Positions 2-30,862 of a stretch of 32,000 nucleotides of DNA are shown piece by piece; position 1 is the first letter of the stretch; every line of letters starts with the position of its first letter. Where the stretch lies: positions 960,001 through 992,000 of the forward strand of contig CP064964.1 of NCBI GenBank assembly GCA_016699205.1, written 5' to 3'. A model generated the notes under the pieces. It searched no databases and had not been told where the DNA came from. It was given only the letters and a program-made list of their open reading frames with translations. The stretch comes from Candidatus Saccharimonadota bacterium (GTDB lineage: Bacteria > Patescibacteriota > Patescibacteriia > 2-12-FULL-60-25). A program made the position numbers and the translations under genes.

Positions 2-934
2 TTTGATAAATATCTGCTGCCTTTCATCGGTGTTGCGCGAGCGATGAAGCTTGTGCCAAAAGGCACGCCGGTTTGGTCGATGATGGCGAGTTATGCCGGA
101 TTTGCGAGTTTGTTTTATTGCTGGATGCGCCCATCGACGAAGTTATTGCTTACGCTTCAGGAGGGCGATCCGTTGGAGAAGTATGCCAAGCGCTTGGGTC
201 CTTTGGGTTTTTTACAGGGCTTTTTATTCCGTCGAGCTGATCGCGTACAAGCCATTAGCCGATTTCTTGGGGAATGGGCCGTGAAGAATGGTTTTCGTGG
301 ATCTGTCGATGTTATTCCAAACGGTGTTGATATTGAGAGTTTTTCCAAATCTATCGATGCATCGCGCCGCAAACATCTCCGTGAGATGTTTGGTTTTGGC
401 GATGACGATATTGTTTTGGTGACGGCATCGCGCTTGTCTTTAAAGAATGCGGTAGATGATGTTGTGCGTGCTATGCCTGTGCTACCGGCTCGATGTAAGT
501 TTCTTGTTATCGGTGTTGGGGAAGATGACGGGATGTTGCATTCGCTTGTGGATGAGCTGGGTGTAAAAGATCGTGTTGTTTTTGCCGGCTATCGTACGCA
601 TGCAGAATTGCCAGAGCTGCTGCGCGCTTCAGAAATTTTTATCCGACCTTCTTTATCTGAGGGATTGGGTAATTCATTTTTGGAGGCGATGGCAGCGGAG
701 ATTCCGATTATCGGTACGCAAGTTGGCGGGATTCCTGACTTTTTGATCGATGGAGAGACGGGTGTGTTTTGTGAGCCGAGAAATCCGGAATCGATTGTGA
801 AAGCGGTCGATCGCTTACTCGTAGAACCGGGGCTAAGAGAGCGTGTTGTTACCAATGGTGCAAAGCTTGTGCGCGAGGGTTATGATTGGGCATCGATCAG
901 CGTAAGAATGCAGAAGCTTTTGGAGACTCTATGA
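2..934 (+). CDS. Glycosyltransferase, GT4 family (GT-B fold); 5' end runs off the window
   Basis: The frame is open from nt 2 (FDKYLLPFIGVARA precedes the listed Met at 44). It has a C-terminal Glycos_transf_1-type core (RPSLSEGLGNSFLEAMAAEIPIIGTQVGGIPDFLIDGETG). The TGA at 932-934 overlaps the next ATG (ATGA). Confidence 0.85.
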   Translation, partial: FDKYLLPFIGVARAMKLVPKGTPVWSMMASYAGFASLFYCWMRPSTKLLLTLQEGDPLEKYAKRLGPLGFLQGFLFRRADRVQAISRFLGEWAVKNGFRGSVDVIPNGVDIESFSKSIDASRRKHLREMFGFGDDDIVLVTASRLSLKNAVDDVVRAMPVLPARCKFLVIGVGEDDGMLHSLVDELGVKDRVVFAGYRTHAELPELLRASEIFIRPSLSEGLGNSFLEAMAAEIPIIGTQVGGIPDFLIDGETGVFCEPRNPESIVKAVDRLLVEPGLRERVVTNGAKLVREGYDWASISVRMQKLLETL

Positions 935-1636
935 CGATTTATACTTCCGGGAATGCTGCAAAACAGTGGATTTTAACCGAACTGCATACGCGATTTGGTG
1001 AAGCGGCTTTTAAGATTTTGGATCTCGGCTGCGGTGCAGCTGGATCATGGAAGACTTTTTTAGAGATGCATCCGCAAGCGGCGTATTTTGGATTTGATTA
1101 TGACCGAGCCGCTGTGGAAAAGGGGCGGCGTGATTTTTCTGGAATAACGAATGCTGTTTTGAAGGTGGGGGATGCGCAGACATTGTCAACGGGTGAGGCG
1201 TTTGATGTTGTGACCGCGTTTAGTGCTATCGAACATGTGGTTGATAAAGAAGCGTTTTTAAAAACGGTTTTTTCTGCATTAAAATCCGGTGGTGTGGCGT
1301 ATTTGAATTATGACGATGGGGCATTTCCGATCGACGGATATCAAGGAGCGCATCATGGTTCCGGTGAGCCAGTTATTGGCGATGATTGGTATTCAGGGTC
1401 CGTATATGAAGCATGTTGTTGATACGGAATTTTCTAAGCAGGCGGAGCAAGCGGGATTTAAGGTCATCGCTCTTCGCAAGCACAATCTCTATCCTATTAA
1501 AGGGTTTATGCGTGGAGCGTCTGAGGAGGCTGTTAAAGCCTGGTATGAATTTGAAGAGAGATTGAACGAGCTCTATACGCCTGAGCAGTTGGATAAGGTT
1601 AAATGGTCTACGACACTGGTTATAGAAAAGCCATGA
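931..1636 (+). pseudogene. Class I SAM-dependent methyltransferase with one +1 frame break
   Basis: The N-terminal part lies in ORF 886..1422 (ILDLGCGAAGSW motif I, FDVVTAFSAIEHV, LKSGGVAYLNYDDG). The C-terminal part lies in ORF 1310..1636 (HFRSTDIKERIMVPVSQLL...). Removing one G from GGGG 1318-1321 restores a single ~234-aa ORF. ATG 931 overlaps the upstream stop. Confidence 0.75.
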
Positions 1637-2767
1637 GAATTTTAATTGCCTCGGGTATTTACCCGCCAGAAGGAGGAGGGCCTTCCATTTATAGCCATGC
1701 GATGGCCCGTGCTTTGATTTCCATGGGCCACAGCGTTTCTGTTGTTGCTTACGGAGAAGAAGCGAGCTCAACGTCCGATGGTTGGCGCGTTGAGCGTGTT
1801 TCTCGTCGTGGCGGACCGATGGTCCGTTACTTCCGTTTCTTTGTTCGTGCATGGAAAGCGATGAAGTCTGCGGATGTTGTTTACTTGCAGGGCGCGGTAT
1901 CGGAAGGATTGCCGACGACGATTGCGGCGGGATTGCGTCGTATCCCGACGGTGTATCGCATTCCCGGAGATTACGCCTGGGAGATGTCGCAGCAGCGCGG
2001 CGATACGGATTTGCTCGATGCGTTTTTGGAAAAGCGGCATCGAGGTGTTATTGGTTTGTATGAACGTATTGAGCGATTTGTTGCCAAGCGCGCGAGTCGG
2101 ATTATTGCGCCAAGCAATTATTTGAAATCGGTTGCGATCCGATGGGGAATTGCATCGCCGTTTATTACGGTGATTAGAAATGCGGAAGTTGCTTTGCCCA
2201 CTGGTTTATCGCGAGAGCAAAAGCGTCGCGTTGAGCATATGGAGGGAAAGACGGTTTGTTTTACGGTTGTGCGCGCTGTGCCTTGGAAGGGCGTTGCGGA
2301 ATTGATCGAGTGGTGGAGCGGTTTGCCGGATACACATCAATTAGTAATGGCTGGAGACGGACCTGAGCTTGAGAAATGGAAAATGCTTGCAGAGAAGTCT
2401 CCGGCTGCAAATCGTATTCGGTTTGTTGGGAGGTTGAATCGTGAAGAGATTGGAAACTGGATGCGTGCATCGGATGTCTTTTTGTTACATTCCGGTTATG
2501 AGGGTTATCCGCATGTTGTCGCGGAAGCGGCATCGATGGGTGTTCCGTGCTTGGTGAGCGATCAAGGGGGGCAATCCCGAGACCAAAGAAGTTTTTGGCG
2601 ATTTGATCCAGGTTTTGCCGTATCGAAATCAGCAGGCTTGGGTTCAGGCGCTGAAAGAAGTTTCTGTTAGAACAAAGGAAGAGATTCCTGCGGCTACATG
2701 GTCGCATCGCGCGATGAGCGAGCGTGTTGAAGGCGTGTTGGTCGAGGCCGAACGAAAAGAAGGGCCG
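1633..2767 (+). pseudogene. GT4 glycosyltransferase with one +1 frame break; 3' end not defined by a stop codon
   Basis: Starts MRILIASGIYPPEGGGPSIY at ATG 1633, overlapping the upstream TGA. The motif HSGYEGYPHVVAEAASMGVPCLVSDQGG is followed by a frame switch. Dropping one G from the G6 run at 2566-2571 continues as NPETKEVFGDLIQVLPYRNQQAWVQAL in the frame of ORF 2603..3844. That frame has no stop before the next GT's Met at 2768. Confidence 0.7.
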
Positions 2768-3844
2768 ATGCAAACCCTGATGTTTTCTTTTGATCGAGCG
2801 TTGCTAGATACGGAGTCGGCATCGATGCGGCGTATTCAGGATTTGGCGGGCGAGGGGATGGTTCAGGCGGTTGTTTTGTCGCATTTCAAAACGGATGAGA
2901 TTGCGCAGGTTGATCATGTAACGGCGTATGGTTTTTCTGGATCGGGATTTATTCGTTTTTATCGTGCGATTGTGCAGGGGATTCGTATTGTTAACGCTGT
3001 ACCGAAACGAACGCTGGTTACCGCGCAAGATCCTTTTATTGCGGGGGCGGCTGCTTATCTCGTATCGAGAATCAAAAATGTTCCATTGGAAGTGCAGGAG
3101 CATGGTGATTTTTATTCTGGATATTGGAAAAAAGAATCTTGGAAGAATCGATGCTTGTCTCTTGTTGGAAGATTTGTTCTTGGGCAGGCCGAGCGCGTAC
3201 GTGTTGTTAGTGATCGTGTGAAGGAGTATTTGATTGCTGTAGGAATCAAAGCGGAGAAGATCGAGGTTATTCCGGTCGCTGTTGAGCTACCTTCCGGGAT
3301 TGTTAGGGGAGGAGGCAGTGATGTTTTTCGTTTCGTTGTTCCGTGCCGTTTTGTCGAGCAAAAAGGTTTGGATGTGTTGTTGAAAGCAGCGGCCTTGCTG
3401 AAACAGGAGAATGTTTCATTCCATCTTTCGATAATAGGCCGAGGTCCGCTGCTGAGTTCTTTGCATGGCATGATCGAGAGCAAGGGGCTGGTAAAAGAAG
3501 TTGATATTCAGGATTGGAAGGAGGGGAATGATGTTTGGAGAGATGCGGATGGCTTTGTGATGTCGTCGCGTTATGAGGGGTTTGGCCGCACGGTTCTCGA
3601 GGCGATGGCTTCCAAGGTCGCTGTTGTTGCTACGGATGTCGGTTGTGTGGGAAGTGTTTTACGACCTGGTGTTGATGGGCGAGTTGTGTCGATTGGTAAT
3701 GCGGAAGAACTAGCGGTTGCGATGAAGGCGACTATTGTCGATAAAGAATCTACAGATCGCATGATTGCGTCTGCGTATGAGCGTGCCAAGGATTTTCATC
3801 GACCAAGGCTCTTCATGAAAAACAACGCGCTGGCTGGCGTTTGA
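2768..3844 (+). CDS. GT4 glycosyltransferase
   Basis: The N-terminus MQTLMFSFDRALLDTESASMRRIQ is typical of this GT4 subgroup. The C-terminal core reads SSRYEGFGRTVLEAMASKVAVVATDVGCVGSVLRPGVDGRVV. It is in the same frame as the corrected upstream GT, so the start is chosen by homology logic only. Confidence 0.8.
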   Translation: MQTLMFSFDRALLDTESASMRRIQDLAGEGMVQAVVLSHFKTDEIAQVDHVTAYGFSGSGFIRFYRAIVQGIRIVNAVPKRTLVTAQDPFIAGAAAYLVSRIKNVPLEVQEHGDFYSGYWKKESWKNRCLSLVGRFVLGQAERVRVVSDRVKEYLIAVGIKAEKIEVIPVAVELPSGIVRGGGSDVFRFVVPCRFVEQKGLDVLLKAAALLKQENVSFHLSIIGRGPLLSSLHGMIESKGLVKEVDIQDWKEGNDVWRDADGFVMSSRYEGFGRTVLEAMASKVAVVATDVGCVGSVLRPGVDGRVVSIGNAEELAVAMKATIVDKESTDRMIASAYERAKDFHRPRLFMKNNALAGV

Positions 3845-5262
3845 TATTGAATCAGATTCTGGAAGTGCGTCCGCGATTTGATTTGTGGGTGCTTGCTTTT
3901 GTTTTGTTTGCTCTAGCAACGCGTCTTGCTTCTGCCTTCTTATTCCACAACGGATTGGTGAATCGTGAGTGGGGATTTTATACGCTGGTTGAACATTGGT
4001 TTCAGGGATACGGATACTCCTATGCAACGGAGCTCGGATGTCCGTCCGCGTACCGTTCTCCTGGCTTTCTGTTCTTTTTGACAGCTTTGTATAGCGTGAT
4101 TCGACCGGAGAATACGCTTGCACAGGCATTGATCCAGAACTTGATTGCGTGGCTTGCGTTGATTTTGGTTTATGTTGTCGGTAAGCGATTTGTTGGAAAA
4201 AAGGCTGCGCTGCTCGGGGGGGTGATGATGGCTTGTTATCCGTATACGTTTTATCATTTCACTCAGTACTATCACACGTTTCTATCGACGTTTTTTATTC
4301 TGTTTCTTGTTTGGACGCTGCTGCGTTTGAAGGAGAATAAAAAATTATCAACTGCCGTGCTCGCCGGAGCGTCGATCGGTGCTCTGGCTTATATCCAAGG
4401 CACCATTTTGCCGGCGGCACCGTTTATCGTTGCTTGGCTTTTGTGGATGTGGTGGCCGGATTGGAAGAGAACGGTGATCGTGGCGGTGATTATGGCCGTT
4501 GTTTCCGCGGGCATGATTGCGCCGTGGACGTATCGCAATTGGCAGGCGTTCCATGCGTTCGTGCCTCTGACGACGGATTTGGGGCATGGATTTTTTAAGG
4601 CGAATAATGAATATATTTACGAGATTACGAAGCGCGGATATCCGATGGAAATTGTGGATGATCCGGTTGTGTCGTCGACCAATCCGAACTACATCATGTT
4701 CACGATCCAGCCGTGGCTGCGGGAGGAATTGGAAAAAGATGGCGTATATCGCGAATCCATTTATTGGACGGAATGGCATACGAAGTATCCGGTAGGAAAA
4801 ATGGAAACCTGTTCTGAGCGCGGATTGATGAATGAAAAGCAGTTTGCGGATTATTGGGCCGGTCGATCCAAGGAATGGATGAGCAAACATTTTTGGACGG
4901 ATGCCTGGAAATTGCCACTGCAGAAATTCAAAACATTTTGGCAGCCAGGATTATTTCCAAGCGTAAAAACAGGAGCGCCGTGGTCGTTTGCGAATGATCC
5001 GACCAAGGTTTTCTTGGCGCGTTTTGCCGTCTGGTTTTCAACGCTCGTTGTCGTGTTGCTTGGTTGGCTTGGGCTTATCATCGCGATACGGCGTAAGAAA
5101 TACGAGGCGGTGCTCGTCGTGATTCTCGTCCTCGTTTACAGCTTGATGCACAGCCTGTTTGCCGGATATACCAAGTACCGCATGCCGCTCGACCATTTAT
5201 TGGCACCGTTTGCCGCCTATGTAATCGTTCTCTTGTATGAAGCTCGTCTACGTCGCAAATAG
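3841..5262 (+). CDS. Polytopic membrane glycosyltransferase, GT-C fold (ArnT/PMT-like, GT39/83-type)
   Basis: 473 aa with many hydrophobic segments and an aromatic-rich central soluble region. It has the general look of ArnT/PMT-family proteins (YPYTFYHFTQYYHTFLSTFFILFLVW). The first in-frame start is TTG 3841, which overlaps the upstream TGA (TTGA). Confidence 0.7.
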   Translation: MILNQILEVRPRFDLWVLAFVLFALATRLASAFLFHNGLVNREWGFYTLVEHWFQGYGYSYATELGCPSAYRSPGFLFFLTALYSVIRPENTLAQALIQNLIAWLALILVYVVGKRFVGKKAALLGGVMMACYPYTFYHFTQYYHTFLSTFFILFLVWTLLRLKENKKLSTAVLAGASIGALAYIQGTILPAAPFIVAWLLWMWWPDWKRTVIVAVIMAVVSAGMIAPWTYRNWQAFHAFVPLTTDLGHGFFKANNEYIYEITKRGYPMEIVDDPVVSSTNPNYIMFTIQPWLREELEKDGVYRESIYWTEWHTKYPVGKMETCSERGLMNEKQFADYWAGRSKEWMSKHFWTDAWKLPLQKFKTFWQPGLFPSVKTGAPWSFANDPTKVFLARFAVWFSTLVVVLLGWLGLIIAIRRKKYEAVLVVILVLVYSLMHSLFAGYTKYRMPLDHLLAPFAAYVIVLLYEARLRRK

Positions 5263-7799: not shown

Positions 7800-8874
7800 A
7801 TGAAATCGGTGTTTTTAGTGGCGGGCGCAAGGCCGAATTTTATCAAGATTGCGCCAATTTATGAGGCTTTGCGTAAGCAAGGCCTGGGTGTCGTATTGGT
7901 CCATACGGGCCAGCATTATGACGCCAACATGTCGGATGTTTTTTTAAAGAGTTGGGAATTCCTGATCCGGACATTCATTTGGGCGTTGGAGCTGGTGACC
8001 GCATCGCCCAATCACAAAGAATTACCGCTGCACTTATTCCTCTTTTGCAGGAGCGCAAGCCAAACGCGATTATTGTTGTTGGAGATGTGACTTCGAGCGC
8101 TGCCGGTGCGATGGCTGGTGTTGCTGCAAACATTCCTGTCGTGCACGTGGAGGCTGGATTACGTTCCCATAACTGGCGCATGCCGGAAGAATTGAACCGC
8201 ATGATCGCTGATCATCACTCGGATTATTTGTTTGTGTCGGATGAAGCGGGGCTCGAGCATCTTGAGAGCGAACGTATTCCAAAAGAAAAATCCATTACGT
8301 CGGCAATGTCATGATCGATTCGCTGCGTAAGGCGGAACCGATTGCGGAATCATCGACGATTCTTGAACAGCATTCGATCACGCCTCAATCGTACGGTGTT
8401 TTGACTCTGCATCGTCCTGAGACGGTTGATAGTCCGGAGACGCTTCGAGTGGTTTGGGAATCGCTTAAGAAGATTTCTGAAACGCTGCCGCTGATTTTTC
8501 CGGTGCATCCGCGCACTAAGTCGCGCATGCAGGAGCTTGCCGGCGAAAATTCCCGTATCAAGATCGTTGATCCGATTGGTTACATGGACATGATTAAGCT
8601 GGTGAAAAATTCCAAGCTTGTCCTGACGGATTCCGGCGGTTTGCAGGAAGAGACGACGGCGATGTCTGTTCCATGCATTACATTGCGCGATGAGACCGAA
8701 CGTCCATCAACGGTTGTTTATGGTACGAGTGAAGTGGTCGGTCGTGATCCCGAGAAAATTATCGAGGCGTTTGAACGTGCGATGCGAGGCGACTGGAAAA
8801 ACGGCGGCTTGCCTCCAAATTGGGATGGGAAGACGGCGGAGCGCATCGCGGAAATTTTAGCGAAACTTTTGTAA
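7800..8874 (+). pseudogene. wecB: UDP-N-acetylglucosamine 2-epimerase (WecB/MnaA/WbpI family) with two -1 frame breaks
   Basis: Three consecutive ORFs (7800.., 7952.., 8311..) concatenate into a full-length WecB-like protein: MKSVFLVAGARPNFIKIAPI...HTGQHYD...VHVEAGLRS...HRPETVD...FPVHPRT...TDSGGLQEE...TERP. The breaks are at the T7 run 7939-7945 (T8 expected, giving DVFFKELGIP) and the A5 run 8286-8290 (A6 expected, giving PKEKIHYVGNVMIDSL). Confidence 0.85.
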
Positions 8875-8877: not shown

Positions 8878-9898
8878 ATGTCCAAACGTCTCTTGTTTAT
8901 CACGCCCAAGATCAACGACAAGGACGATGATGTAGCGTTTGCTGCTTTGTGGGCCAAGGGTTTCACGGATGCCGGTTTTGACGTGACGATTATTTGCGGC
9001 GAGAAAGGAGAGACGAGTTTGCCGAATGTGTACTCGGTCGAGCACAAGCAGGGCGGATCGCGCTTGGGATCGCTCATGCGTTTTTGGAAGCTGATGTTTA
9101 CGCTCAAATACGATCGGGTATTTGTGCACATGAACACGCGCTGGCTTGCGGCAGGTGCGTTGTATTGGAAGTTGAAAGGTATTCCGACGTATTTATGGTT
9201 CACGCATTACACGCGTACCGCGACGTTGAAGTTTGGCGAGATTGCGGTTACGCGATTTTTTTGCGCGACCAAGGAATCGCTTCCGCACTATGAAGGCGAT
9301 CCACGTAAGATCGTGACCGGTCATGGTATCGATACGGAATATTGGAATGTGCCGGAATTACCGGAGAGCGAGCGCAAAGATGCAAAGCATTTGTTGGCCG
9401 TGCATCGTATCTCGCGATCCAAACGGCTTGATATTGTGCTGCGTGCGCTTGCGTTGCTTCCGCCTGAATACACGCTGACGCATTATGGTCGTCCGCTTGA
9501 TCCGTCGGCGGATAATAATTATCAGGGCGAGATCGAGTCGCTTGTGAAAGATTTAGGTTTGACCGAGCGCGTGCGGTTTATGGGTTCGGTGCCGATGCCC
9601 TCGCTGCGTGAGATTTATCCGCGTTTCCGCGTGTTTATCAATTTGGTTCCAAAGACGATCGACAAGTCGGCGCTTGAAGCGATGTATTGCGGTTTGACGC
9701 CTGTCATTATTCAGGGGTCATGCAGATGCGATTGGGTATCCGGATTTTCCTAAGGATGAAACACCAGAAGCGATTGCCGAGTTTATTCTCGGGATGCGTA
9801 TTCACTCGCGCGAGGATTTGCGTTCGATTGTCGAGCGCGGGCATAGCATGAAATCGCTGATCGCCAAGATGTCGTCGTACATCATGCCGGGAAAATAA
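8878..9898 (+). pseudogene. GT-B (GT4-like) glycosyltransferase with one +1 frame break
   Basis: ORF 8878..9753 carries the GT-B body (HRISRSKRLDIVLRAL..., INLVPKTIDKSALEAMYCGLTPVII). Removing one G from GGGG 9714-9717 continues as QGHADAIGYPDFPKDETPEAIAEFILGMRIHSREDLRSIVERGHSMKSLIAKMSSYIMPGK, ending at TAA 9896-9898. Confidence 0.7.
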
Positions 9899-11698: not shown

Positions 11699-12692
11699 AT
11701 GTTAGCTGTCATTTTGGGGACTCGACCCGAGATCATTAAGACGGCTCCGGTGGTGCTTGAGGCCCAGCGGCGCGGTATTCCTGTTGTTATTATCCACACC
11801 GGCCAGCATTACGATGATGCCTTAGACGGGATTTTTTTTCGTGAGTTAGGGTTGCCGCAACCGGTCATGAATTTGGGTGTGGGATCGATGCCTGTGTTGA
11901 AACAGTTGGGAGCGATGATTGATCGTTTGCATGATGCGTTTCAATCGCTTCAGCCAAAAGTCGTCATGGTGCAAGGCGATACGAATTCTGTTTTAGCGGG
12001 TGCATTGGCTGCGCATAAAGTCGGAATCAAGGTTGCGCATTTAGAAGCGGGTTTGCGCAGTGATGATTGGGAGATGCCCGAGGAGGCGAATCGTGTCTTG
12101 GCCGGTTTTGTAGCTGACTTCCATTTTTGTCCGACGGAGGTGCAGCGTGACCGATTGAAAGGCGAGACGGTGATGGATGATGTGCATGTTGTTGGGAATA
12201 CGGTTGTTGATGCGGCGTTACATTATCGGGAGATAGCAAAATCATCTGATGTTTTGATGCGCTTCAAGATTGATGGACCGTATGCATTGTTAACGATGCA
12301 TCGGCCGTCGAATGTCGATGATTCAGAGCGATTGCGCTCGATGATTGAGATGCTTTCACGTCTTGCTGAGCGACGTGCATGGAAAATGGTGTTCCCTGTA
12401 CATCCACGTACCAAGTCTCGTCTTGTAGCCAGCGGCTTGTGGGATGAGCTCTTGGTACGCATTTTGGGGCTGGCAGAGGGCGCTTTTTACGAGTGCCTTG
12501 TGTCTTTGCTCCAATACGGAACGTCCTGAAACGATTGCTGCTGGCGGAAATATTTTGTATGCCGGAAATGATACAGAAGAGCTCAATCGTATTGTAGATA
12601 TCATGTTAGCCAAGCCGCGTGATTGGAATTGCCCTTTTGGTGATGGAGCGACGGCTGGCCGTGTCCTTGATATCCTGCACAAGTATCTATGA
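11699..12692 (+). pseudogene. wecB: Second WecB-type UDP-GlcNAc 2-epimerase paralog, decayed (internal deletion plus two -1 frame breaks)
   Basis: The N-terminal two-thirds are intact (MLAVILGTRPEIIKTAPV...HTGQHYD...AHLEAGLRS...HRPSNVD...FPVHPRTKSR). Between HPRTKSR and TERPET there are only ~32 codons, versus 56 in copy 1, so the PIGY...LVLTDSGG region is largely missing. Reading has to pass through all three frames between ~12484 and ~12512: GLAEGAF, then LRVPCVF, then SNTERPET. Confidence 0.8.
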
Positions 12693-13272
12693 AGCTCGCT
12701 TCTTGGGAATCATTCTTCAATGAGTCGGTGCAAGCCGGATTGCAGCCGGGATGCTGGCTTGATATTGCAGGCGGATAGGCGCTGATGCTTAAGGATGCTG
12801 ATCCCGTGTGATCAAACCGTTGCCGAGAAGGTGGAGTACCGAGTCATGGATCCAGTCGACCTACCACCGGAGTTGGCGATGCATGAACAGCCTTTGAGCT
12901 TGGGACGGCGTTTTTTGCTTAGCTGTATTGGAGCATGTTCCTAGACCTTGGGATGCCGTGCGAGAAATCCATCGTGTTCTCAAGCCTGGGGGAATCGCGT
13001 TTTTTTATGTTCCGTTTCTCTCTCCTTATCATGCGATGCCGGGATATTATGGAGATTATTTCCGTTTTACCGAAGACGCTGTCCGATCGCTTTGCGCAGA
13101 TTTTTCAACTCTGGATTTCCGGCCGATCCGTGGTCCGGTTGAAACGATTATTCATCTTTTGCCAGGCGTACTGAGTCATTCATGGGTGCGCTTGTTGGGT
13201 AGAAGGATTGATTCGTTGCGTAAATCTTCTGGGAAGCAAGTTTCTGGATATAGTTTTTTTGTACGAAAATAA
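12689..13272 (+). pseudogene. Relic of a class I SAM-dependent methyltransferase (nonsense codon plus at least two frame breaks)
   Basis: ATG 12689 overlaps the wecB-2 stop. Motif I WLDIAGG is followed directly by TAG 12776-12778. Stops occur in all three frames within 17 nt (TAG 12776, TGA 12783, TAA 12790). The middle part lies in another frame (DQTVAEKVEYRVMDPVDLPPEL). The C-terminal part is in ORF 12928..13272 (DGVFCLAVLEHVPRPWDAVREIHRVLKPGGIAFFYVPF). Confidence 0.65.
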
Positions 13273-14281: not shown

Positions 14282-14328
14282 AGCTAACCCTTGATTTTGA
14301 GGGCTGTTTTTGCTAGGTTTGACCTGCC

Positions 14329-15770
14329 ATGCAACAGGAAAAGCCCGCGTTTGGTTACACGAGCAAGGACTATGTCCTTCAAGGTAGCCTTATCATCCTC
14401 TCCGACGAGTCGACGGTTTGGGACGCGCTTTCCAAGCGTGTTCGTACGAGTATTCGTAAGGCCGAGCGATCGGGTGTGCGTATCCGTGAGTTTGCTCCGG
14501 AGCGTGATCTCGAGACGGTCAAGCCGTTTACTCCAAACGATGATGATATCCCGCCGGTTTTTGAGTCCCGTCATCATGGATTTGTTGCCGAGGCGGAAGA
14601 TACGGGCGAGGTGCTGGGCTGGGTGTTGACGGCTGGTGTCGGACGCAAGAACTTCTTGCTCTGCCATGCTTCAACTCAAACGGCAAAAAGTGCGAGACTC
14701 CCAACTTGCTGATGTGGCAGGCGATCAAGCACTCGTTTGGGAATTTCCAGTACTTCGATGTCGGCGTTTCGTATCGGCCTTCTTTGCAGTTCTATTTCTC
14801 CGGCCATCGCCAAAAGAGTTATCCGATGGTGATGCGTCCGACGGATTTGCCGATTGATCTTCGTATTACGCCGTTTGATACGGCTGCGTACGGAATCGAT
14901 CCTGGTCCTGCGGCGGATGGCAAGAAGCTGCTGGATGAAGTGCTTGGTACGGACGTCTGGACGTTCTTTCCACGTGCGATGTTTGCGATCGCTGGGTGTT
15001 TGATGGAGTACCGCGATCAAGGCCGACTGACGGCAGATGATGAAGTACTGATCTCGACGACAACGGGCACGCCTTACATCTCGTCCTGCGTTACACGGGC
15101 GATCGAGAGCGTGTGCAAGTGGTCGCAGATTCCGTCGGACAAGACCAAGGCGGTGTTCCTGATCCATGAGTTTGGTTTTCCGAATCCCCATGCTGCGGAG
15201 ATGCGAGCCTTCTGCGACCAGCGAGGAATTCCGCTCATCGAAGACTTGGCGTATGGCTGGGGCTCGGAAGGGACTGGGAATTGGGGTGATGTAAAAATCG
15301 TTTCATTCACCAAGCTTTTTCCGGTACAGTTTGGCGGTGCCCTCGTGGGTATGTCGATTCCGCCGGAACGTCATTGGAAGGTCTTGCGCAGCTCTGATCC
15401 TGCAAAAGGTGAAGAGGTGCTTGGACTTTTGCCTAAGGTTTGGCAGCCGATGGCCGAGATTCGTGCCAAGCGCCAAGAGATCTGGAATCTTTATGCCGAC
15501 CGACTCGCGCAGGTAATTGATCCTTGGATGGCGATCGAACCGGGTGTGATGCCTGGTGCGTTCATCGCCAAACTCAAGGACGAAGAAGAGATGAAGCGCG
15601 TTCAAGCCTTTGTTCTACCGTTCGGTATCGAGGTTGGGAACTGGTATCATCACGCGTCGATCTTTGTTCCGTGTCACCAACGGATGACTAGCCGTCACGT
15701 TGACTATGTTTCCGGAGCGATCCTCGCAAATTTCCGCGAGAATTGCGGGATTCCCGGAGTGCGCTGCTGA
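14329..15770 (+). pseudogene. Fusion of a FemAB/BioF2-like GNAT (Acetyltransf_6-type) domain with a DegT/DnrJ/EryC1-like PLP-fold domain; one -1 frame break in the N-terminal domain
   Basis: The N-terminal ORF 14329..14712 (VWDALSKRVRTSIRKAERSGVRIREF...FLLCHASTQTAK) continues in ORF 14706..15770 (NLLMWQAIKHSFGNFQYFDVGVS...). The break lies near the A5 run 14685-14689 or the C3 run 14700-14702. In the same frame downstream come DEVLISTTTGTPYISSCV, KAVFLIHEFGFP, PLIEDLAYGWGS and VSFTKLFPVQFGGALVG, which match the DegT-type layout including the Lys position. The family call is by motif memory only. Confidence 0.55.
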
Positions 15771-17247: not shown

Positions 17248-17359
17248 AGAAATCAGAAGAAGACTAACATGGTGAAATCAAGCTTGAAAGGGCGTTGATA
17301 GGCTAGGGATAAAGTTCTTGCATAAAGCTGTTTTTACCTGCTAAGGTGCGGGCAATTGT
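17248..17359. promoter_or_regulatory. Divergent intergenic region, presumed promoters for the minus-strand methyltransferase and the DegT-GT2 gene
   Basis: This is one of only two non-coding gaps over 100 nt in the window, and it sits between divergently oriented genes. Weak sigma70-like pairs are present (TTGAAA 17284-17289 with GATAAA 17308-17313; TTGCAT 17318-17323 with TAAGGT 17342-17347). None is convincing. Confidence 0.3.
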
Positions 17360-19150: not shown

Positions 19151-19270
19151 TGAGATGTCTCGCATATATCCAAGGTAAAATTGTCACGCCATGGGCCTAC
19201 GAGCGAGTATTTTTGGTTTACAAGTATCGTATCGTGAAGGGTTATTGGCACCGGTTAAATCAAAATCCGT

Positions 19271-20050: not shown

Positions 20051-20055
20051 CTATT

Positions 20056-21659: not shown

Positions 21660-22399
21660 ATTTTTCTCCACTGGGCGACCAGCATTCCTGATGCGAATCG
21701 TTTTGAGAAAATGGGCGACAGCCACTTTTCTAGTTTGAACAAGAAGGGCGATAGTATCGTTTTTAATTTCTTTGGCATTCTCCAGACCATGGAATTCAGA
21801 ACAAATATGTACGCCGGACCACCGATATACGTACAAGATATCTCTTGGAAATGTCCTGACGATTTTTGAAGAAGTTCCTCGTAATTGATCGCCTCTTCAT
21901 TTTCTTCGAAGAGATTATCGATGCTGTACCACATTTTGCGAATGATGTTCAGGAACGATTTGTCATGCGGTTCGGCAAAACACAATATTCCATTTGGCCT
22001 CAGTAATCGATGAAATTCCTTAATCCCTTCCATCGTGTGCGGCGGAAGGTGATGCAACCCGCCCACAATACAGATTACGTCGTAGGTGTTTGCAGGTAGG
22101 TTGGTTTTGGTTGCAGAGGCATGCACGGTGCGTGTTTGCGGGCGTTTTTCTTGATAGATGCTTAGTGCATTGCTAGAGATATCCAAAGCGGTAATACTAG
22201 CGTGGTTCCTAACAAGAAAGTCTCCGCAAGCTCCGGAGCCGCACATGGCCTCCATAACTTCTTTACCCGCCAGATCGATGTTTTTAAACAGATGCGGGTT
22301 TAAAAATTCCTCACGATATTTCTCGCTTTCAGCGTCGTGATAGTGGCTGTCGTATAGCGAGATAATGTTGTCGTAGTGCGCTTCCTGGGAGGATTCCAT
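21656..22399 (-). CDS. Class I SAM-dependent methyltransferase
   Basis: Has VMEAMCGSGACGDFL (motif I), ALDIS, YDVICIVGGLHHLP and LLRPNGILCFAEP. Its stop overlaps the stop of the convergent GT2 gene (TTAA 21656-21659). Confidence 0.8.
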   Translation of the reverse strand: MESSQEAHYDNIISLYDSHYHDAESEKYREEFLNPHLFKNIDLAGKEVMEAMCGSGACGDFLVRNHASITALDISSNALSIYQEKRPQTRTVHASATKTNLPANTYDVICIVGGLHHLPPHTMEGIKEFHRLLRPNGILCFAEPHDKSFLNIIRKMWYSIDNLFEENEEAINYEELLQKSSGHFQEISCTYIGGPAYIFVLNSMVWRMPKKLKTILSPFLFKLEKWLSPIFSKRFASGMLVAQWRKI

Positions 22400-22436
22400 A
22401 GATGTATGATTATTATGCTGTATTGATTTTTTGTCT

Positions 22437-23831
22437 ATGTTCCAACGATTACATGCCTTCGGCTTTGTTCGAATGAAGTATTTTGTGCTTTTGCTCGCTT
22501 TGATCGTTGGTTCGTATTACATCATTGCAAGTCCTGGTGTTTTGGAGGCAGACGCATCTCAATATCATGAAATGGCGCTCGGATTGACCTCTGGGCAGGG
22601 TTTTATTTTGGAGGGTGAAGTCAGTATGGAGCGCGAGCCATTGTATCCGTTGTTTCGGGCCGGATTATTGATGCTTGGCATAGATGTATCTGGCATCCTG
22701 TGGGTACAGCTTGCGTTTTTGATCTTTGCGCTTTGGGTTTTTATGCTCGTACTTGAGCGATTTTCCCATGCTCAGGCGCTTTGGAGCGGGGCGATCGCGG
22801 CTGTATATCCAGGATTCATGATTTGGCCATCTCTTCATCTTTCTGAAAGTCTATCCATTTTTCTTTTAGCAATTTTTTGTTATTTGTATGATCGTGCTTT
22901 GTCGCATGATGCTGCCCTACGTCAATCATGGTGGAAATTCTGCATGTTGGGTATTGTCTGCGGTTTACTGATATTAACCAAGGCTGCATATCTTCTTTTG
23001 CCAATCGTTATTGTTATCGCTATCTGTTTTCAAAGCAAAGTCGCGAAGCTCGCTAAGGCTTCACTATTTTTTGTTTTGGTTTTGGCGGTATTAATGCCAT
23101 GGCTGTATCGTAATCATGTGCGTTTTGATCGATGGAGTATCACGAATCGATCCGGATGGATGGTTTATGCGCGTGGTATCAAGACGGAGTTTTCTTGGGG
23201 GCAGCTATTGCAAACCGGTGCTTCAGTTCTAGTTGGGGAGTCTGTTTTAGTCTGGCTCGATCCAGAAGCTCGGCCGATCGTTCGTCAACAATGGGTTGAG
23301 CCGCTCCAATCTGTTATTGCGATGAGAAAAGAGGGTGTTTCCTATGTTGAAATCGATCGGGTATTTATGGAACGCGGAAAAGAAAAACTGTTTTCACATC
23401 CGGCAAACTTGCTGCGTTATGCCGCTTGGATACCAATTGAGACGGTACGGTTGCTCGCTTTTGTGTCGCCGCGTTCGCCGCTTTTTAATGTCGAGCAAAT
23501 GTTTATCGTTGAAGCGCGCGCAGAGGCACTTTCTTGGTTCAAAATTGTTCTGCTTGCTGTTTTACATTTTTTTCAGTTCGTTTGGATTGTCTCGATTTTT
23601 ACCGGGTTGGTTATTCTTCTGCGACGAGGTCTGTTCTTTCAAATCAATATAGTGCTCGTATTGTATACGATTGGGATTTATGTTTTATTCGATTCCATCG
23701 CGCGTTACAGTGCTCCTGTTTTTCCGTTATTGGTTAGCTTGGCTTGCGTTGGTTTTGGTTGGCATGTCTCAGGTTTGAAAACGTTTTCTCGCTTTTTAAG
23801 CAAGCTGGCTTTTTTAAAGCCAGCGCGCTAG
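22437..23831 (+). CDS. Polytopic membrane glycosyltransferase, GT-C fold (ArnT/PMT-like)
   Basis: About 465 aa, hydrophobic throughout. An early loop (EADASQYHEMALGLTSGQGF...EREPLYPLF) resembles the first extracytoplasmic loop of ArnT/PMT-type enzymes. The start is ambiguous: TTG 22431, ATG 22437 or ATG 22473. Confidence 0.65.
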   Translation: MFQRLHAFGFVRMKYFVLLLALIVGSYYIIASPGVLEADASQYHEMALGLTSGQGFILEGEVSMEREPLYPLFRAGLLMLGIDVSGILWVQLAFLIFALWVFMLVLERFSHAQALWSGAIAAVYPGFMIWPSLHLSESLSIFLLAIFCYLYDRALSHDAALRQSWWKFCMLGIVCGLLILTKAAYLLLPIVIVIAICFQSKVAKLAKASLFFVLVLAVLMPWLYRNHVRFDRWSITNRSGWMVYARGIKTEFSWGQLLQTGASVLVGESVLVWLDPEARPIVRQQWVEPLQSVIAMRKEGVSYVEIDRVFMERGKEKLFSHPANLLRYAAWIPIETVRLLAFVSPRSPLFNVEQMFIVEARAEALSWFKIVLLAVLHFFQFVWIVSIFTGLVILLRRGLFFQINIVLVLYTIGIYVLFDSIARYSAPVFPLLVSLACVGFGWHVSGLKTFSRFLSKLAFLKPAR

Positions 23832-23844
23832 GATCGTTGGAACT

Positions 23845-25059
23845 ATGAAAATTGCGATGGTGACTGACAGTTTGTATCCATGGGTGGGCGGGTCAGAAAC
23901 GGCGATTCGTATGCATGTAAAGACGATGCGATCCATGGGGCACGACGTGCGCGTCTATGGTCTTTTTGATCAAGTCGAGTCACCTGGCGAGGATGTACCT
24001 ACGATAAAAGTTTCGAGCCGCTGGATGGGTCTTCCGCTTAAGATCTATGGACGATATCGAAATTTACGACGTGAATTATTGTCTTTTAAACCCGATGTGA
24101 TCAATGCCCATTTTATGCTCCAATCCGGATGGGCCGGTGTCGCTTGCGGGAAGTCCTTGGGTATTCCGACGGTAGTAAGTGTGCGAGGTAAAGGTGTTTT
24201 TTATCGGCCGAAAAGCTGGCTCGAGGTTCTGGCGTTCCCGATCTTTCGTCACCGCTCATTAACCGCAGACGCGATGCTTGCGACAAGCGAAGAGATGGCG
24301 GATATGGTGTTATGGCGGTGGGGCTTTAAGCCAACGCCGCTTGCTAATGGTGTTGAGACGCATCTTTTTCATCCGGACGTTGATGGCTCTTCCATACGGC
24401 GCGAACTTGGTTTGGAGGGTAAGCGTGTTATTTTCTGCGCGCGAAGGTTGGTTGTTAAAAATGGTATTCAGTATCTCGTAAAGGCATTGCCCAGGATCGC
24501 AAAAGCAGTGCCTGATGTGCAGCTTGTACTCGCTGCTCCAAAAGAACGTGAGTATGAAAATTTGATTGCTGATGCTAAGCAGCTGGGTGTTTTTGATCGG
24601 ATGCATTTTGTCGGACAAGTTGATCACGATGTGCTGCCTCAGTACTTTGCGATGGCTGACGTCGTTGTTCAGCCGTCGCTCGCTGAAGCGAGGAGTTTGT
24701 CGTGTCTTGAGGCGATGGCATCTGGCAGTGCTATCGTTGCTACTGCTACAGGTGGATTGGCCGAGTTGTTAACGCATCGTCTCGATGGATATCTTGTCCC
24801 GCCGTTTGAGCCGAGTACGTATCATGTTTCGGCCCCAAAAGAAGAAGGTGTGCAGAATCTCGCGGCTGCAGTGATTGAAGTTTTGTCGGATGATGTGTTG
24901 CGAGCCTCCCTTGAGAAAAACGCGCGAGAATCGAGTTTGCAATACGATTGGTCTCAGACTTCTACGCGTACGCTTGAGATTTATCAGCAGGCAATGAAGA
25001 TTCATGAGCAGGGTGGCCGTCGGTACAGCTGGTGGTCCTATTTTGGGTTTGATCGCTAA
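23845..25059 (+). CDS. GT4 glycosyltransferase
   Basis: Starts MKIAMVTDSLYPWVGGSETAIRMHVKTMRSMGHDVRVYG. The C-terminal core reads VQPSLAEARSLSCLEAMASGSAIVATATGGLAELLTHRLDGYLV. Confidence 0.85.
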   Translation: MKIAMVTDSLYPWVGGSETAIRMHVKTMRSMGHDVRVYGLFDQVESPGEDVPTIKVSSRWMGLPLKIYGRYRNLRRELLSFKPDVINAHFMLQSGWAGVACGKSLGIPTVVSVRGKGVFYRPKSWLEVLAFPIFRHRSLTADAMLATSEEMADMVLWRWGFKPTPLANGVETHLFHPDVDGSSIRRELGLEGKRVIFCARRLVVKNGIQYLVKALPRIAKAVPDVQLVLAAPKEREYENLIADAKQLGVFDRMHFVGQVDHDVLPQYFAMADVVVQPSLAEARSLSCLEAMASGSAIVATATGGLAELLTHRLDGYLVPPFEPSTYHVSAPKEEGVQNLAAAVIEVLSDDVLRASLEKNARESSLQYDWSQTSTRTLEIYQQAMKIHEQGGRRYSWWSYFGFDR

Positions 25060-25061
25060 CT

Positions 25062-26910
25062 ATGTGCGGGATTGCCGGCAAAGTTGGGCCTGGCATCGGC
25101 CATGATCATCAAGATGATGTTTTGAAGGCCGCGCAACTCGTTTCGTATCGAGGGCCGAATGGCTGTCATGTTGATACGGTGCCTGGCGCCTCTTTTTCTC
25201 AGGCGCGCTTATCAATTATCGATTTGCATCAACGATCCGATCAGCCTTTTTTGGTCGTCGGATCGTCGTTACATGATGGTTTATAACGGTGAAATTTATA
25301 ACTACCTCGGAGTTACGCTCCGGAGCTTGTTGCCTTGGGTTGGACGTTCCGTACAGAAGGCGATACAGAGGTCGTTATTGCTGCATATCAACAGTGGGGA
25401 GATGCTTGTTGGAATCGTATGAACGGAATGTGGGCGGTGGCGATTTGGGATACAGGGACCCATTCGTTAACGCTTAGTCGTGACAGGTTTGGCGTCAAGC
25501 CCCTCTACTACTCTCTCGCTGGGGATTCTCTAGTCTTTGGTTCGGAAATAAAGCAGGTGCAGCAATTAATTGGTTGGACGCCTGATCCGAATTGGAGAGA
25601 GGTGTTACTCATGCTGGATCGAAGGAACATCAATAAACGTGAAACGGTTTTTCTTGATATCTATCAGCTTGAAAATGGGTCTTTGCTAACCTATCGATTG
25701 GATGACGAGTCGAGACCTGTTTTGCGTCCTTGGTATGCGATGTCTACGCAGTCGACGGAATTAGCTTACGGTTGATGCGACGGTGCAGCGCTTCCGCGAG
25801 TTATTTATCGATAGTGTGCGTTTACGCTTACGTAGCGATGTTCCGGTTGGAATTTGCTTGTCAGGTGGGTTAGATTCGAGCGCGATTGCTTGTGTTATGG
25901 CGCGTGAACTTGGAGTTACGCCGCACGCGTTCAGCGTTGTTTACCAGGATCCTCGGTATTCGGAGGAGCGCTATATGGATGCCGTGGTTGCACATACGGG
26001 AGCCAATGGCGAAAAGATTTTTCCCTCCGGACAACAGTTTATTGAATCTATTCAGAAAATCGTTTGGCATCACGATGAGCCGCTTCAGATGCCAGGCACA
26101 TTCTCGCAGTGGGGGGTTATGTCTTTAGCTGGTAAATCCGTACGCGTTGTGCTTGATGGACAAGGCGGGGATGAAGTTGCTGGAGGTTATCCTTCTTTTC
26201 ACCCGGCCCTTTTTAGAGGTCTTGTTCGGGATCTTGTGTCTTCACGTGCGGCGAGTGCGTATCGTGAGATTGTCGAGATTGTTCAGGTGCAAGGTGAATA
26301 TGGTTCATCGCTTAAGCATTTAATCGGCGAGTCTCTATTTCCGAGCACTAAACTGCCAAGCCGCACGTTGCGTTTATTAACTAAACAATATGCAACGCGC
26401 ATATCGGGCACGCAGATCGCGCTCTCCTTCCGTGATGCCTTAGCAACGGAAATGTACAGGCAATTTGATCTGGAAAATTTGCCTATGCTTCTCAAGTATG
26501 AAGATCGGATTAGTATGGCGCACTCTATTGAGTCGCGTGCTCCATTTATGGACTATCGATTAGTCGAATTTTGCTTTGGCCTGCCCTATCAATACAAGAT
26601 AAAGGGTTCGAGCATGAAATGGATTTTACGGCAGGCGCTGCAAGATTTGTTGCCAGCTGCCGTCCGCGATCGCCGGGATAAAAAAGGATTCCCAACGCCG
26701 CTAGCTGAATGGATGAAGCGTGATGTGGGCGCGTGGATGCGTTCTCAAGTTGGTCAGGCTTTTGAAGTTCGACCAGAGCTGCGAGAGATTTTTCAGCCTG
26801 AGGAAATTGACCGGTGTTTTGTTGAGCATCAAACCGGACGTGCTAATCACGAAAGGATTTTGTTTCGTGTTTTTACGACGATGCTTTGGTATCGTCAGTG
26901 GTATTCCTAG
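25062..26910 (+). pseudogene. asnB: Asparagine synthase-family amidotransferase, paralog 2, with four +1 frame breaks
   Basis: Four ORF pieces (25062.., 25159.., 25335.., 25783..) concatenate to MCGIAG...RLSIIDL...QPF[W/L]SSDRRYMMVYNGEIYNY.ELRSELVALGWTFRTEGDTEVV...RDRFGVKPLYY...DATVQRFRELFIDSVRLRLRSDVPVGICLSGGLDSS.... The breaks are near 25247-25253, 25306-25310, 25322 and 25770-25771. Confidence 0.85.
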
Positions 26911-28165: not shown

Positions 28166-28998
28166 ATGATCACTTTTTTGCGCCATATGGTAGAGAATAA
28201 GGACTTTTACGCCGAACATTCCGATCAGATTTGGGAAAAGCGTTTTGCGTCTCCGTTTCCTATCCGGAGATATGCACACACGACGCAATACGAGGCGATT
28301 TTAGCGCATGTGAAAGCCGGGAATCGGTTTTGGATTCCGGCTGCGGCGAGGGTGTTATTCCGATCATGCTTGCCAAACGTGGGATCGCGTCGACGGGAAG
28401 CGATTTATCACGGCCAAATATCGAACATGCCAATCAGTTGGCAAAATCACAAGGTGTAGAATCGCTCACGACCTTTCTGGAAGCTGATGCCGAACGTCTT
28501 CCGTTTGCCGACAGGTCGTTTGATGTTGTGATCAGCTCACATGTGCTCGAGCATCTGCCTGATTTTGATCAGGGGTTCCGCGAGCTGTGTCGTGTGGCTC
28601 GTAAGCGGGTTATCGTTGCTTTACCGACCGGCTTGAATGCTAGCGCTATGGCGCTTCTAGGTGGCGATCATGGATATTGGAAGCTCGGTAAGAAGTCCTT
28701 TGTTGCATTGCCGTGGGGATTTTTACGTGTATTATTTGGCGTTTTTGGTGAAGGGGTTCAGGAGGGCTATGCCGGACATGATGAATTGCCGCATATTTGG
28801 CGATACCCGTGGGTGATGCGCCGACGCTTGCAGCATCCTGAATGGAAGTTGGTTTCTTTTGAGGCGAGCACGCTTGTCATGCCGTATTTTAATTTCTTAT
28901 TGCCAGTCGCCAAGTTTTTGGATCGATATCGCTCTGCTCCGATTTTGCGTAATTTTGGGTACGGATCGATTGCGGTTTTTGAACGGATCGATTCTTGA
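28166..28998 (+). pseudogene. Class I SAM-dependent methyltransferase with one -1 frame break
   Basis: The N-terminus is in ORF 28133..28459 (ENKDFYAEHSDQIWEKRFASPFPIRRYAHTTQYEAILAHVKAGNR). The rest is in ORF 28231..28998 (LDSGCGEGVIPIMLAKRG..., LPFADRSFDVVISSHVLEHL). The break is at GG 28326-28327 or the T4 run 28328-28331. The start may be ATG 28166 or 28187. Confidence 0.7.
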
Positions 28999-29000
28999 TT

Positions 29001-30862
29001 ATGTGCGGACTTGCCGGCTTTGCCGGATCTGGGGATCGGCGGAGGCCTTACGCAAGATGGCGAAGGCCATCGAGCGGCGCGGGCCTGATGATGACGGTTT
29101 TTTTGAAGCGCCTGGAGTCGGATTTGGTTTTCGACGATTGAGTATTATCGATGTTGGTGGCGGTCATCAGCCTTTATCAAATGAAGATGGTAGCGTGCAG
29201 GTCATGTTGAATGGCGAGATTTATGGATTCCAGAGACTGCGCGATGCATTGTTAGCGGATGGTTATCGTTTCAAGACAAAGTCCGATACGGAAGTCATTG
29301 TGCATGCGTATGCCAAATGGGGAGATGCGTGTTTTGAAAAATTGGACGGCATGTTTGCGATTGCGATTTGGGATGCAAAGGAGCGGCGTCTTGTGATCGC
29401 GCGTGATCGGCTCGGGAAGAAGCCGATGTATTGGACGGTGAACAATAATACGATTTGGTTTGCATCAGAACTGAAAGCGTTGCTGGCTGCGCGCGTTGTT
29501 GAGAAAAAGATCGACCTCGTTTCTTTGGCTGCTTATTTCAGGAGCGATGCTGTGCCAACGCCGCGCTCCATGTTTGAGGGCGTTTCAAAATTGCCGCCAG
29601 CTTCTGCCATGTCATGGAAAGATGGAAGTATTGAAAAGACTTGGAAGTTTTGGAGCTGCCCGCAGGAAACGATCGACTAAAGAGATCCGGTTGCGGGATT
29701 GCGTGAACGGTTTGATCTTGCCGTGAAAGAGCGTTTGGTTTCCGATGTGCCGCTCGGATTATTTTTGTCCGGCGGACTTGATTCGACAGCGGTTGCGGAG
29801 AGCGCGAGTCGGCAATCTTCAACAAAACTCAAGGCATTTACTATTGGATTTGATGACAAGTCGCATGATGAGTCGGAGGCTGCGGCGTTGGTCGCAAAGT
29901 CGCTGGGGCTTGAGCACTATGTTGAAAAATTAACCGCGGAATCGGCTTTGTCGATGATGCATGAGGCGACAGAGATGTTGGATGAGCCTTTGGCGGATGC
30001 GGCCGTGCTGCCGCAATTATTGTTGTCTCGATTTGCGAGAAAACAGGTAACTGTTGCTTTGAGCGGTGATGGCGGTGATGAATTGCTTATTGGTTATCAG
30101 CATATTCCAGCACATCGAGTGGTTGAAGCATTGCCTGCGATTTCCCGTTTTGGATCGCGTGTCGCGCAAAAACTTCCGGCTGGAGGAGGGTATTTTAGTT
30201 TGGGATTTAAGGCGCAGCGATTTGCGCGGGGAGCATCCATTGAAAATCGTTTGGCGAGAGATTTGGCTTGGCGCGGCGCGGTAGACGCATCGACGTTGAA
30301 GCAGATTCTTGATTCGCGGGTTTTATTGAACGCTGATCCGGATTGGTCTGAGCGTTTGTTGACTGAGTATGCTGCTGAAGCTGGGAATGATTTTGATGGA
30401 TGGCGCGGATGGTCTTGGGCGTATCTCCGAAGTTTCCTGATGGATGAAGTTTTGGTGAAAGTGGATCGGGCGACGATGTGGTTTTCTCTCGAGTCTCGTG
30501 CGCCGCTGCTTGATCGACGCGTTGTTGAATATCTTCTCGCTTTGCCGACCAAGTACAAGACGGGTGCTTGGGGGAAGAAACGGCTGTTGCGTGAGCTTGT
30601 GAAGGGGCGCGTGCCGTCGGAGATACTTGATAAGCCAAAGCATGGTTTTGGTGTACCGGTAGCTGATTGGTTGCGAGGGCCGTTGAAATCGATGTTGTTG
30701 GAATTAACAGCGACGGATCGACTGCGTGAGCAGGGATTATTCCGACCAGAAGGTGTTGAACAGCTCGTGAGCGACCATATTTCCGGGAGAATTGATCGAA
30801 GAAAAGAGCTTTGGGCGATGCTTCAATTTCAGCTCTGGCATTCCAAATTCTTTCGTGATTAG
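29001..30862 (+). pseudogene. asnB: Asparagine synthase-family amidotransferase, paralog 3; 5'-proximal frame break plus an in-frame TAA at the interdomain linker
   Basis: ATG 29001 gives MCGLAGFAGSGD, and the frame is then lost around 29031-29044. It continues in ORF 28859..29680 (AEALRKMAKAIERRGPDDDG...NGEIYGF...SDTEV...). TAA 29678-29680 is in the same frame as the downstream ORF 29699..30862 (LRERFDLAVKERLVSDVPLGLFLSGGLDST...). Confidence 0.85.

Follow-up and report, generated by a model that had tools for sequence, protein, structure and literature searches.

Single-base frameshifts in a patescibacterial surface-glycan locus: probable consensus errors around one apparently decayed junction

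Introduction

Are the many interrupted genes of a bacterial surface-glycan locus dead, or were they only misread? The question arises from positions 960,001 to 992,000 of contig CP064964.1 (assembly GCA_016699205.1), a stretch of 32,000 nucleotides (nt) that we call the window. Its predicted proteins mark the window as a large locus for the biosynthesis of cell-surface glycans in an Uhrbacteria-like bacterium (Patescibacteria/candidate phyla radiation, CPR). An earlier, sequence-only reading reported at least 17 frame-disrupting lesions in 10 genes, about one third of the total, and left three explanations undecided: error, real decay and switchable tracts. Here we report that the lesions divide into isolated 1-nt insertions and deletions (indels), which resemble errors, and one junction that is decayed. 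Comparison with relatives makes it probable that the 15 point indels, found in nine genes, are residual consensus errors of the assembly. Most of the lesions are probably not a biological feature; only the second of two wecB-type epimerase genes (wecB-2) and the methyltransferase gene adjacent to it are real pseudogenes.

Point lesions and their absence from relatives

A comparison with orthologous loci, which the sequence-only reading had called for, was made with eight independent reference assemblies: L001/L025 (one contig), L002, L003, L026, L027, L028, L029 and L030. L001, L002 (JGI) and L003 (Logan) were obtained via exact-protein look-ups of database homologues and share ~85-86% nt identity with the window over 1-21.5 kb, while L025 to L030 came from exact matches of the window's methyltransferase of 247 amino acids (aa) at 21656-22399. 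Among the latter, L026 (NCBI GCA_963851785.1, a 1.07-Mb contig) is 96.9% identical over 19.2-32 kb, and L028 99.74% identical over 19088-25562 (6.5 kb). Exact lesion sites were taken from three- and four-way DNA alignments with these relatives; in the first 19 kb, where the closest references are only ~85% identical, the base and position of an indel are good to a few nt.

The references are collinear with the window and have one intact open reading frame (ORF) wherever a window gene is fragmented. Congruently, consecutive parts of a single Pfam model are matched by neighbouring ORF fragments in the split genes. These fragment matches and the intact syntenic genes bear out that frame-disrupting lesions exist at or near the places where they had been reported, but the earlier gene tally did not hold: with the junction included, 11 of the 27 genes are broken, and three point lesions had been overlooked. 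None of the eight assemblies has a frame-disrupting indel in the affected genes, so the lesions are private to the window, and because the relatives are free of them the lesion load is far beyond chance for real coding sequence. The point class consists of 15 one-base indels (seven insertions and eight deletions) and one nonsense codon in the following nine genes.

931..1636, + strand: S-adenosylmethionine (SAM) methyltransferase, 234 aa in relatives; G inserted at 1318 (GGG->GGGG); Pfam Methyltransf domains in ORF 886-1422
1633..5262, + strand: fusion of two GT4 modules and a polytopic membrane domain; C inserted at 2572, 1-nt deletion at ~3790; three ORFs in the window
7800..8874, + strand: wecB-1, UDP-N-acetylglucosamine (UDP-GlcNAc) 2-epimerase, 358 aa; T deleted at 7938 (T8->T7), 1-nt deletion at 8286
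8878..9897, + strand: glycosyltransferase, 339 aa; T inserted at 9718
14329..15770, + strand: 480-aa protein with a weak DegT-like C-terminal match; G deleted at 14681, private in comparison with L025, L026 and L027
17360..19274, + strand: DegT aminotransferase-GT2 fusion, 638 aa; T deleted at 19143 (T6->T5), A deleted at 19260; cut to 596 aa
25062..26910, + strand: asnB-2 amidotransferase, 614 aa; T inserted at 25247 (T5->T6), G at 25309, G at 25322, T at 25766
28166..28998, + strand: methyltransferase, 277 aa; complex deletion AG>C (net -1) at 28317
29001..30862, + strand: asnB-3 amidotransferase, 620 aa; G deleted at 29030 (G5->G4); nonsense C>T at 29678 (CAA>TAA)

When the 15 indels and the nonsense codon were undone, the nine genes yielded ORFs of 234, 1209, 358, 339, 480, 638, 614, 277 and 620 aa, which are the ortholog lengths. 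In the methyltransferase at 931 the deletion of G1318 restores the frame, and the corrected glycosyltransferase at 8878 has the length found in the relatives. The GT4 gene at 1633, formerly read as a gene of its own with one lesion, corresponds to the first third of one 1211-aa fusion gene in L001, L002 and L003, and its two frameshifts (2572 and 3790) leave ORFs 1603-2670, 2603-3844 and 3841-5262 in the window; the last of these had been taken for a separate intact gene. With both indels corrected the fusion reads as one uninterrupted ORF, the site of the second being uncertain by a few nt: a T placed after 3790 makes a TGA, and a base one position later restores all 1209 aa. The three fragments of wecB-1 match positions 4-42, 33-146 and 154-346 of the 347 of Epimerase_2; once corrected, the protein scores 300.9 bits against TIGR00236 (cutoff 210.15) over positions 3-363 of 366, but as encoded it gives three fragments only.

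Likewise, the 1.8-kb ORF 17360-19150 had been counted as intact; it encodes 596 instead of 638 aa through two 1-nt deletions. L028 has both missing bases, and L003 and L026 have the corrected length. The four lesions assigned to asnB-2 were all located, as 1-nt insertions. Its fragments match GATase_7/GATase_6 and then Asn_synthase in Pfam, and the insertions are absent from L025, L026 and L027, the first three also from L028. For asnB-3, which had been given one or two frameshifts and a TAA at 29678, the nonsense codon is present and the number of frameshifts is one. Exact-protein look-ups with the truncated DegT-GT2 and the truncated wecB-2 found no assembly sharing the window lesions in the searched collection, and those with asnB-1, ORF 19966-20799, the Gfo oxidoreductase, the methyltransferase at 7065 and the flippase likewise had no match.

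Two further features of these genes were seen. In asnB-2 the insertions at 25309 and 25322, separated by 13 nt, are identical: each adds a G to C-GAG and makes it CGGAG. With the T at 25247 they sum to +3, and the original frame is regained after 75 nt and lost again at 25766. The membrane domain of the 1633-5262 fusion is polytopic, measures 470 aa and had no Pfam or NCBIfam match in the scans made; two GT4 modules and such a domain in one protein are an unusual architecture.

Selection and substitutions in the affected genes

A test for relaxed selection in broken and intact genes, also proposed with the sequence-only reading, detected none in the nine point-lesion genes. After frame correction, the ratio of nonsynonymous to synonymous substitution rates (dN/dS) was 0.017-0.080 in the broken genes, DegT-GT2 excepted (0.067-0.147), and 0.009-0.159 in the intact ones, and the values of the broken genes resembled those of the same genes compared between intact relatives. 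By gene, we obtained 0.059-0.080 for the methyltransferase at 931, 0.053-0.068 for the GT4 fusion, 0.017-0.039 for wecB-1, 0.044-0.065 for the glycosyltransferase at 8878 and 0.030-0.047 for the protein at 14329. In the half of the window with close relatives, the window-private substitutions were 48 synonymous, 13 nonsynonymous and one stop in broken genes (asnB-2, 3 synonymous and 3 nonsynonymous; methyltransferase 28166, 23 and 6; asnB-3, 22 and 4 plus the stop) versus 92 synonymous and 22 nonsynonymous in intact genes, that is, a nonsynonymous to synonymous ratio of 0.27 versus 0.24. Neutral sequence approaches three nonsynonymous changes per synonymous change.

The balance between indels and substitutions was equally informative. 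Over 19.3-32 kb L025, L026 and L027 show no indel relative to one another; in the same 12.7 kb the other lineages have 154-340 private substitutions and no indels, and the window has 194 substitutions and six indels. L001 and L003 do not differ by a single frame-breaking coding indel over ~20 kb, despite ~15% divergence. Between the window and L028 there are 12 substitutions and five indels in 6.5 kb, and all five indels are window-private. They fall within the ~680 nt of affected genes that L028 covers, where there is no window-private substitution at all (P=1.3e-3 to 6e-6 for five indels without any substitution).

Measured ratios of spontaneous indels to substitutions in bacteria are 0.10-0.36 (PMC4978911 Table 1; PMC8717266), and the 0.35 of Acidobacterium capsulatum was called high relative to its substitution rate (PMC8717266). 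If the six indels in asnB-2, methyltransferase 28166 and asnB-3 were real, they would predict at least 12.7 extra nonsynonymous changes; ~2.5 were seen, a deficit with P=0.019 at a ratio of 0.36 and P=1.6e-5 at 0.18.

The nine genes, then, show neither the relaxed selection nor the deletion bias and multi-nt events of pseudogenes. They show what is expected of artefacts: 1-nt indels whose reversal restores ORFs of ortholog length, which are private to the window and leave the pattern of selection and substitution unchanged. Since the indels come without accompanying substitutions or relaxed selection, an indel-specific process must have acted on the window alone and over essentially zero evolutionary time, and we favour consensus error because it is the simplest such process confined to the window. 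The point indels would be the residual consensus noise typical of long-read or low-coverage assembly, by which functional genes are split into apparent fragments. Gene-fragmenting indel errors are known in such assemblies (PMC12007338).

Several observations weigh against consensus error. Runs of at least 5 nt contain four to five of the 15 indels, a tenfold enrichment given that these runs make up 3% of the bases, and 10 are found in runs of at most 4 nt or in no run; none of the 12 seven-nt runs was hit, a pattern unlike classic raw nanopore. The lesions are also mildly clustered, with three spacings of at most 120 nt (P=0.049) and with the 16 point lesions in nine genes versus 11.5 expected (P=0.078). 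Such clustering could arise from local consensus trouble or from real decay of dead genes, in concordance with the earlier view that the distribution alone is undecisive. Moreover, asnB-3 has a nonsense substitution beside its frameshift, and the window has no general excess of substitution errors. This codon fits the error class poorly; it may reflect a true polymorphism, and asnB-3 could then be a genuine pseudogene of very recent origin. There is, finally, the decay at wecB-2 and its neighbour described below, by which parts of the locus are seen to be dispensable; selection may perhaps already be relaxed on some of the pathway.

As to sequence context, a search for methylation-linked error motifs around the lesions (GATC, CCGG, CGAG, CTCGAG and GGAG) returned no convincing shared context: P was 0.18 for GATC, and the nominal P=0.012 for CCGG is uncorrected for five motifs and in part a product of the insertions. 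When the 15 lesion flanks were compared by eye, no shared slippery motif was seen.

A decayed junction between wecB-2 and a methyltransferase

A different kind of damage was found in ~0.5 kb that takes in the 3' end of wecB-2 together with the 5' half of the methyltransferase gene after it.

11699..12692, + strand: wecB-2 pseudogene; residues 1-251 kept (94% identity), 252-291 deleted, 292-361 66% identical and in another frame
12689..13272, + strand: methyltransferase relic; the gene encodes 206 aa in L001 and L003, and L026 has no copy; stop codons at 12776, 12783 and 12790

wecB-2 had been described with a deletion of ~72 nt and two shifts; by alignment and by tblastn with the L001 ortholog the net loss is ~89 nt, made up of deletions of 4, 46, 35 and 4 nt at 12457-12503. 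The missing residues 252-291 include the conserved DSGGVQEE segment, and Epimerase_2 is matched at positions 6-233 and 282-346 only. The lost segment is catalytic. In the relic, eight small deletions of 1-8 nt (37 nt in total) at 12775-12898 have removed the SAM-binding N-terminal half, and the C-terminal 125 aa remain in a single frame with 72% identity. The stops claimed for all three frames at 12776-12792 were found as TAG 12776, TGA 12783 and TAA 12790.

All 12 indel events of the junction (~12451-12930) are deletions, of 1-46 nt. Raised divergence is restricted to its two members: dN of the relic is 0.256 versus 0.020 between relatives, and the wecB-2 tail has 66% identity versus 94% in the part that was kept. 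These deletion-only multi-nt events and the raised divergence uphold the earlier argument that the items at wecB-2 and the relic are not homopolymer miscalls, and point to real decay. A closer intact allele of the relic, which would tell a divergent allele from decay, was sought, and the best database homologue had 68% identity.

Two methyltransferases are missing from L026: the 206-aa one, of which L001 and L003 have intact copies, and the 297-aa one on the minus strand at 16354-17247, which has 246 aa in L001. There is therefore presence/absence variation of methyltransferase content between close strains. As the alignments indicate, the junction is real, older pseudogene decay at a site of such variation, and it would have been shaped by the usual bacterial deletion bias.

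Alternative explanations

The alternative that survives best, although we judge it unlikely, holds that all the lesions are real: selection on the glycan locus would have been lost very recently, possibly once both wecB copies had gone, and the genes would have been inactivated one by one with a bias to 1-nt indels, e.g. under weak or absent mismatch repair. True decay in the same locus speaks for it, and so do the repeated lesions in the genes hit (four in asnB-2 and two each in wecB-1, the fusion gene, DegT-GT2 and asnB-3), the CAA>TAA substitution at 29678 and the strain-variable gene content exemplified by the two methyltransferases missing from L026. Against it stand corrected dN/dS and private substitution ratios like those of intact genes, without any signal of relaxed selection, and the lack of the substitutions expected beside 15 neutral indels at the published ratios (PMC4978911, PMC8717266). 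Frameshifts outnumber nonsense codons 15:1. Insertions and deletions are about equally frequent and all of 1 nt, in contrast with the deletion-only, multi-nt junction. L028, at 99.74% identity, is without all five lesions in its span, and most indels lie outside the long runs where a repair-deficient mutator would put them. In its strict form, that a CPR bacterium is dismantling a 30-kb surface-glycan locus in an extremely short interval through real, indel-dominated 1-nt mutation, e.g. without mismatch repair, the proposal is rather improbable. Were it true, both UDP-GlcNAc 2-epimerases and two of the three AsnB-like amidotransferases would have been lost at once, and the window would show with unusual sharpness how an episymbiotic lineage suddenly loses a surface glycan pathway.

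A second alternative, which we consider very improbable, is strain collapse. Garbled stretches would have come from co-existing strains merged in the consensus, and the junction would be an assembly artefact too, mixing strains with and without the methyltransferase. Strains of both kinds do exist (L001 and L003 with the gene, L026 without), and the indel cluster of asnB-2 sits where the L025 and L026 alleles differ most, with 85% versus 98% identity to the window. For the junction, though, strain collapse is unlikely: the two flanks, of 70 and 125 aa, each read cleanly in one frame and have coherent raised divergence (dN/dS 0.13-0.16), which a random consensus mixture would not yield; nor is there a database allele closer than 68-72%.

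In other bacteria, genes for surface glycans are classic targets of phase variation, and some lesions lie in short runs (T8 at 7938, T6 at 19143, T5 at 25247, G5 at 29030). Switching, whether through phase-variable homopolymer tracts or through programmed ribosomal frameshifting or transcriptional slippage that keeps the proteins full-length, is nevertheless extremely improbable. Of the 15 indels, 10 are in runs of at most 4 nt or in none, and the longest tract (T8) falls short of the usual contingency tracts. No tract-length polymorphism is seen, since each site keeps its in-frame length in all eight assemblies. The orthologs are unshifted single ORFs so that no frameshift is conserved, the visual comparison of flanks revealed no slippery motif common to the sites, and two to four separate events would have been required in several genes. 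Phase variation and programmed frameshifting were rejected on the unshifted orthologs and the many sites outside tracts, and switchable tracts were also what the sequence-only reading had ranked as least likely.

Gene content and mosaic identity of the locus

The surface-glycan locus was identified by Pfam and NCBIfam scans of the window proteins. It encodes several GT4 and GT2 glycosyltransferases, with a DegT aminotransferase fused to one GT2 domain, many SAM methyltransferases, two wecB-type UDP-GlcNAc 2-epimerases and three AsnB-like amidotransferases, as well as a Gfo/Idh/MocA oxidoreductase resembling UDP-GlcNAc 3-dehydrogenase, a hexapeptide acetyltransferase, a Wzx-like flippase and, at the right edge of the window, a nucleoside diphosphate (NDP)-sugar dehydrogenase/epimerase. 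Among the NCBIfam matches shown, those of wecB-1 and asnB-1 alone scored above equivalog cutoffs; those of the dehydrogenase, the acetyltransferase and the aminotransferase were below. The gene set of 13277-19274 and 30873-32000 recalls, by predicted function, a Wbp-type route to UDP-2,3-diacetamido-2,3-dideoxy-uronic acids, which may be amidated and methylated.

The third amidotransferase gene, asnB-1 (9900-11693), is intact. Its 597 aa compare with 606-608 aa in the eleven closest homologues among the matches listed (74-91% identity), the difference being due to two in-frame deletions, one of 6 nt after 10147 and the other of 27 nt after 11255, and its dN/dS is 0.06-0.07. Metagenome bins of Candidatus Uhrbacteria and Patescibacteria supply the best asnB-1 homologues, with identities of up to 91%. 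Scans of genome and metagenome contig collections with the GT4 protein of 23845-25059 returned distant relatives only, at identities up to 31% and up to 64%; the 64% match spans a 47-residue fragment, and identity over the full protein is ~51%.

The window has ~50% G+C, and nearly all its long ORFs are on the + strand. In the gene set this strand holds 25 of the 27 genes, and GC skew is strong and positive throughout (+0.04 to +0.32 per kb). Skew and strand bias would suit a leading-strand position in a small genome of marked strand asymmetry.

Compared with L001/L025, L026 and L027, the identity of the window to the same relative is strongly mosaic, from ~85% over 1-19 kb to 98-100% over 20.3-23.8 kb and 26.3-27.9 kb. 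The window-private substitutions are concentrated in the tracts 28665-28815, 29809-29961 and 31004-31709. From the alignments, the mosaic pattern looks like frequent homologous recombination between Uhrbacteria strains inside the glycan locus.

Discussion

Taken at face value, the window would have 40% of a glycan locus pseudogenised, a reading that distorts gene counts, the reconstruction of the pathway and claims on how the genomes of CPR bacteria decay. Once their frames are corrected, the nine genes with point lesions should be annotated as intact, among them the 1211-aa fusion that looks like three genes, and a corrected gene model for the locus is the useful outcome of this work.

The pathway itself can be compared with the Wbp-type pathway of Pseudomonas aeruginosa (WbpA, B, E, D and I). 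An NDP-sugar dehydrogenase, a Gfo/Idh/MocA oxidoreductase, a DegT aminotransferase, a hexapeptide acetyltransferase and wecB-type 2-epimerases are found in the window likewise, together with AsnB-like amidotransferases. The window differs in adding many methyltransferases and GT4/GT2 enzymes and in its CPR host, and its functions are predictions from sequence.

With the contingency glycan genes of Campylobacter, Haemophilus and Neisseria the window shares frameshifts in glycosyltransferase and sugar-modification genes, some of them in homopolymers. Unlike those genes, however, it has short tracts, most of its sites are outside tracts, and there is no length polymorphism among the eight assemblies.

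The junction has its counterpart in the decay of bacterial pseudogenes with a deletional bias, as reportedly described by Mira, Ochman and Moran in 2001 and by Kuo and Ochman in 2010. The 3' end of wecB-2 and the relic show deletions only (1-46 nt), in-frame stops and raised dN; catalytic and SAM-binding motifs are lost, and the methyltransferase gene is entirely absent in the sister strain L026. The other nine broken genes are different, with no relaxed selection, no multi-nt events and no deletion bias.

For those nine genes the closest counterpart would be the gene-fragmenting indel errors of long-read or low-coverage assemblies, which Watson and Warr are said to have described in 2019. The dependence on homopolymers is weaker in the window than in raw nanopore data, and one lesion is a nonsense substitution. 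On the other hand, in both cases isolated 1-nt indels split genes whose fragments jointly match one full-length ortholog, and the indels are private to one assembly, in part located in homopolymers and removable by reference-guided correction.

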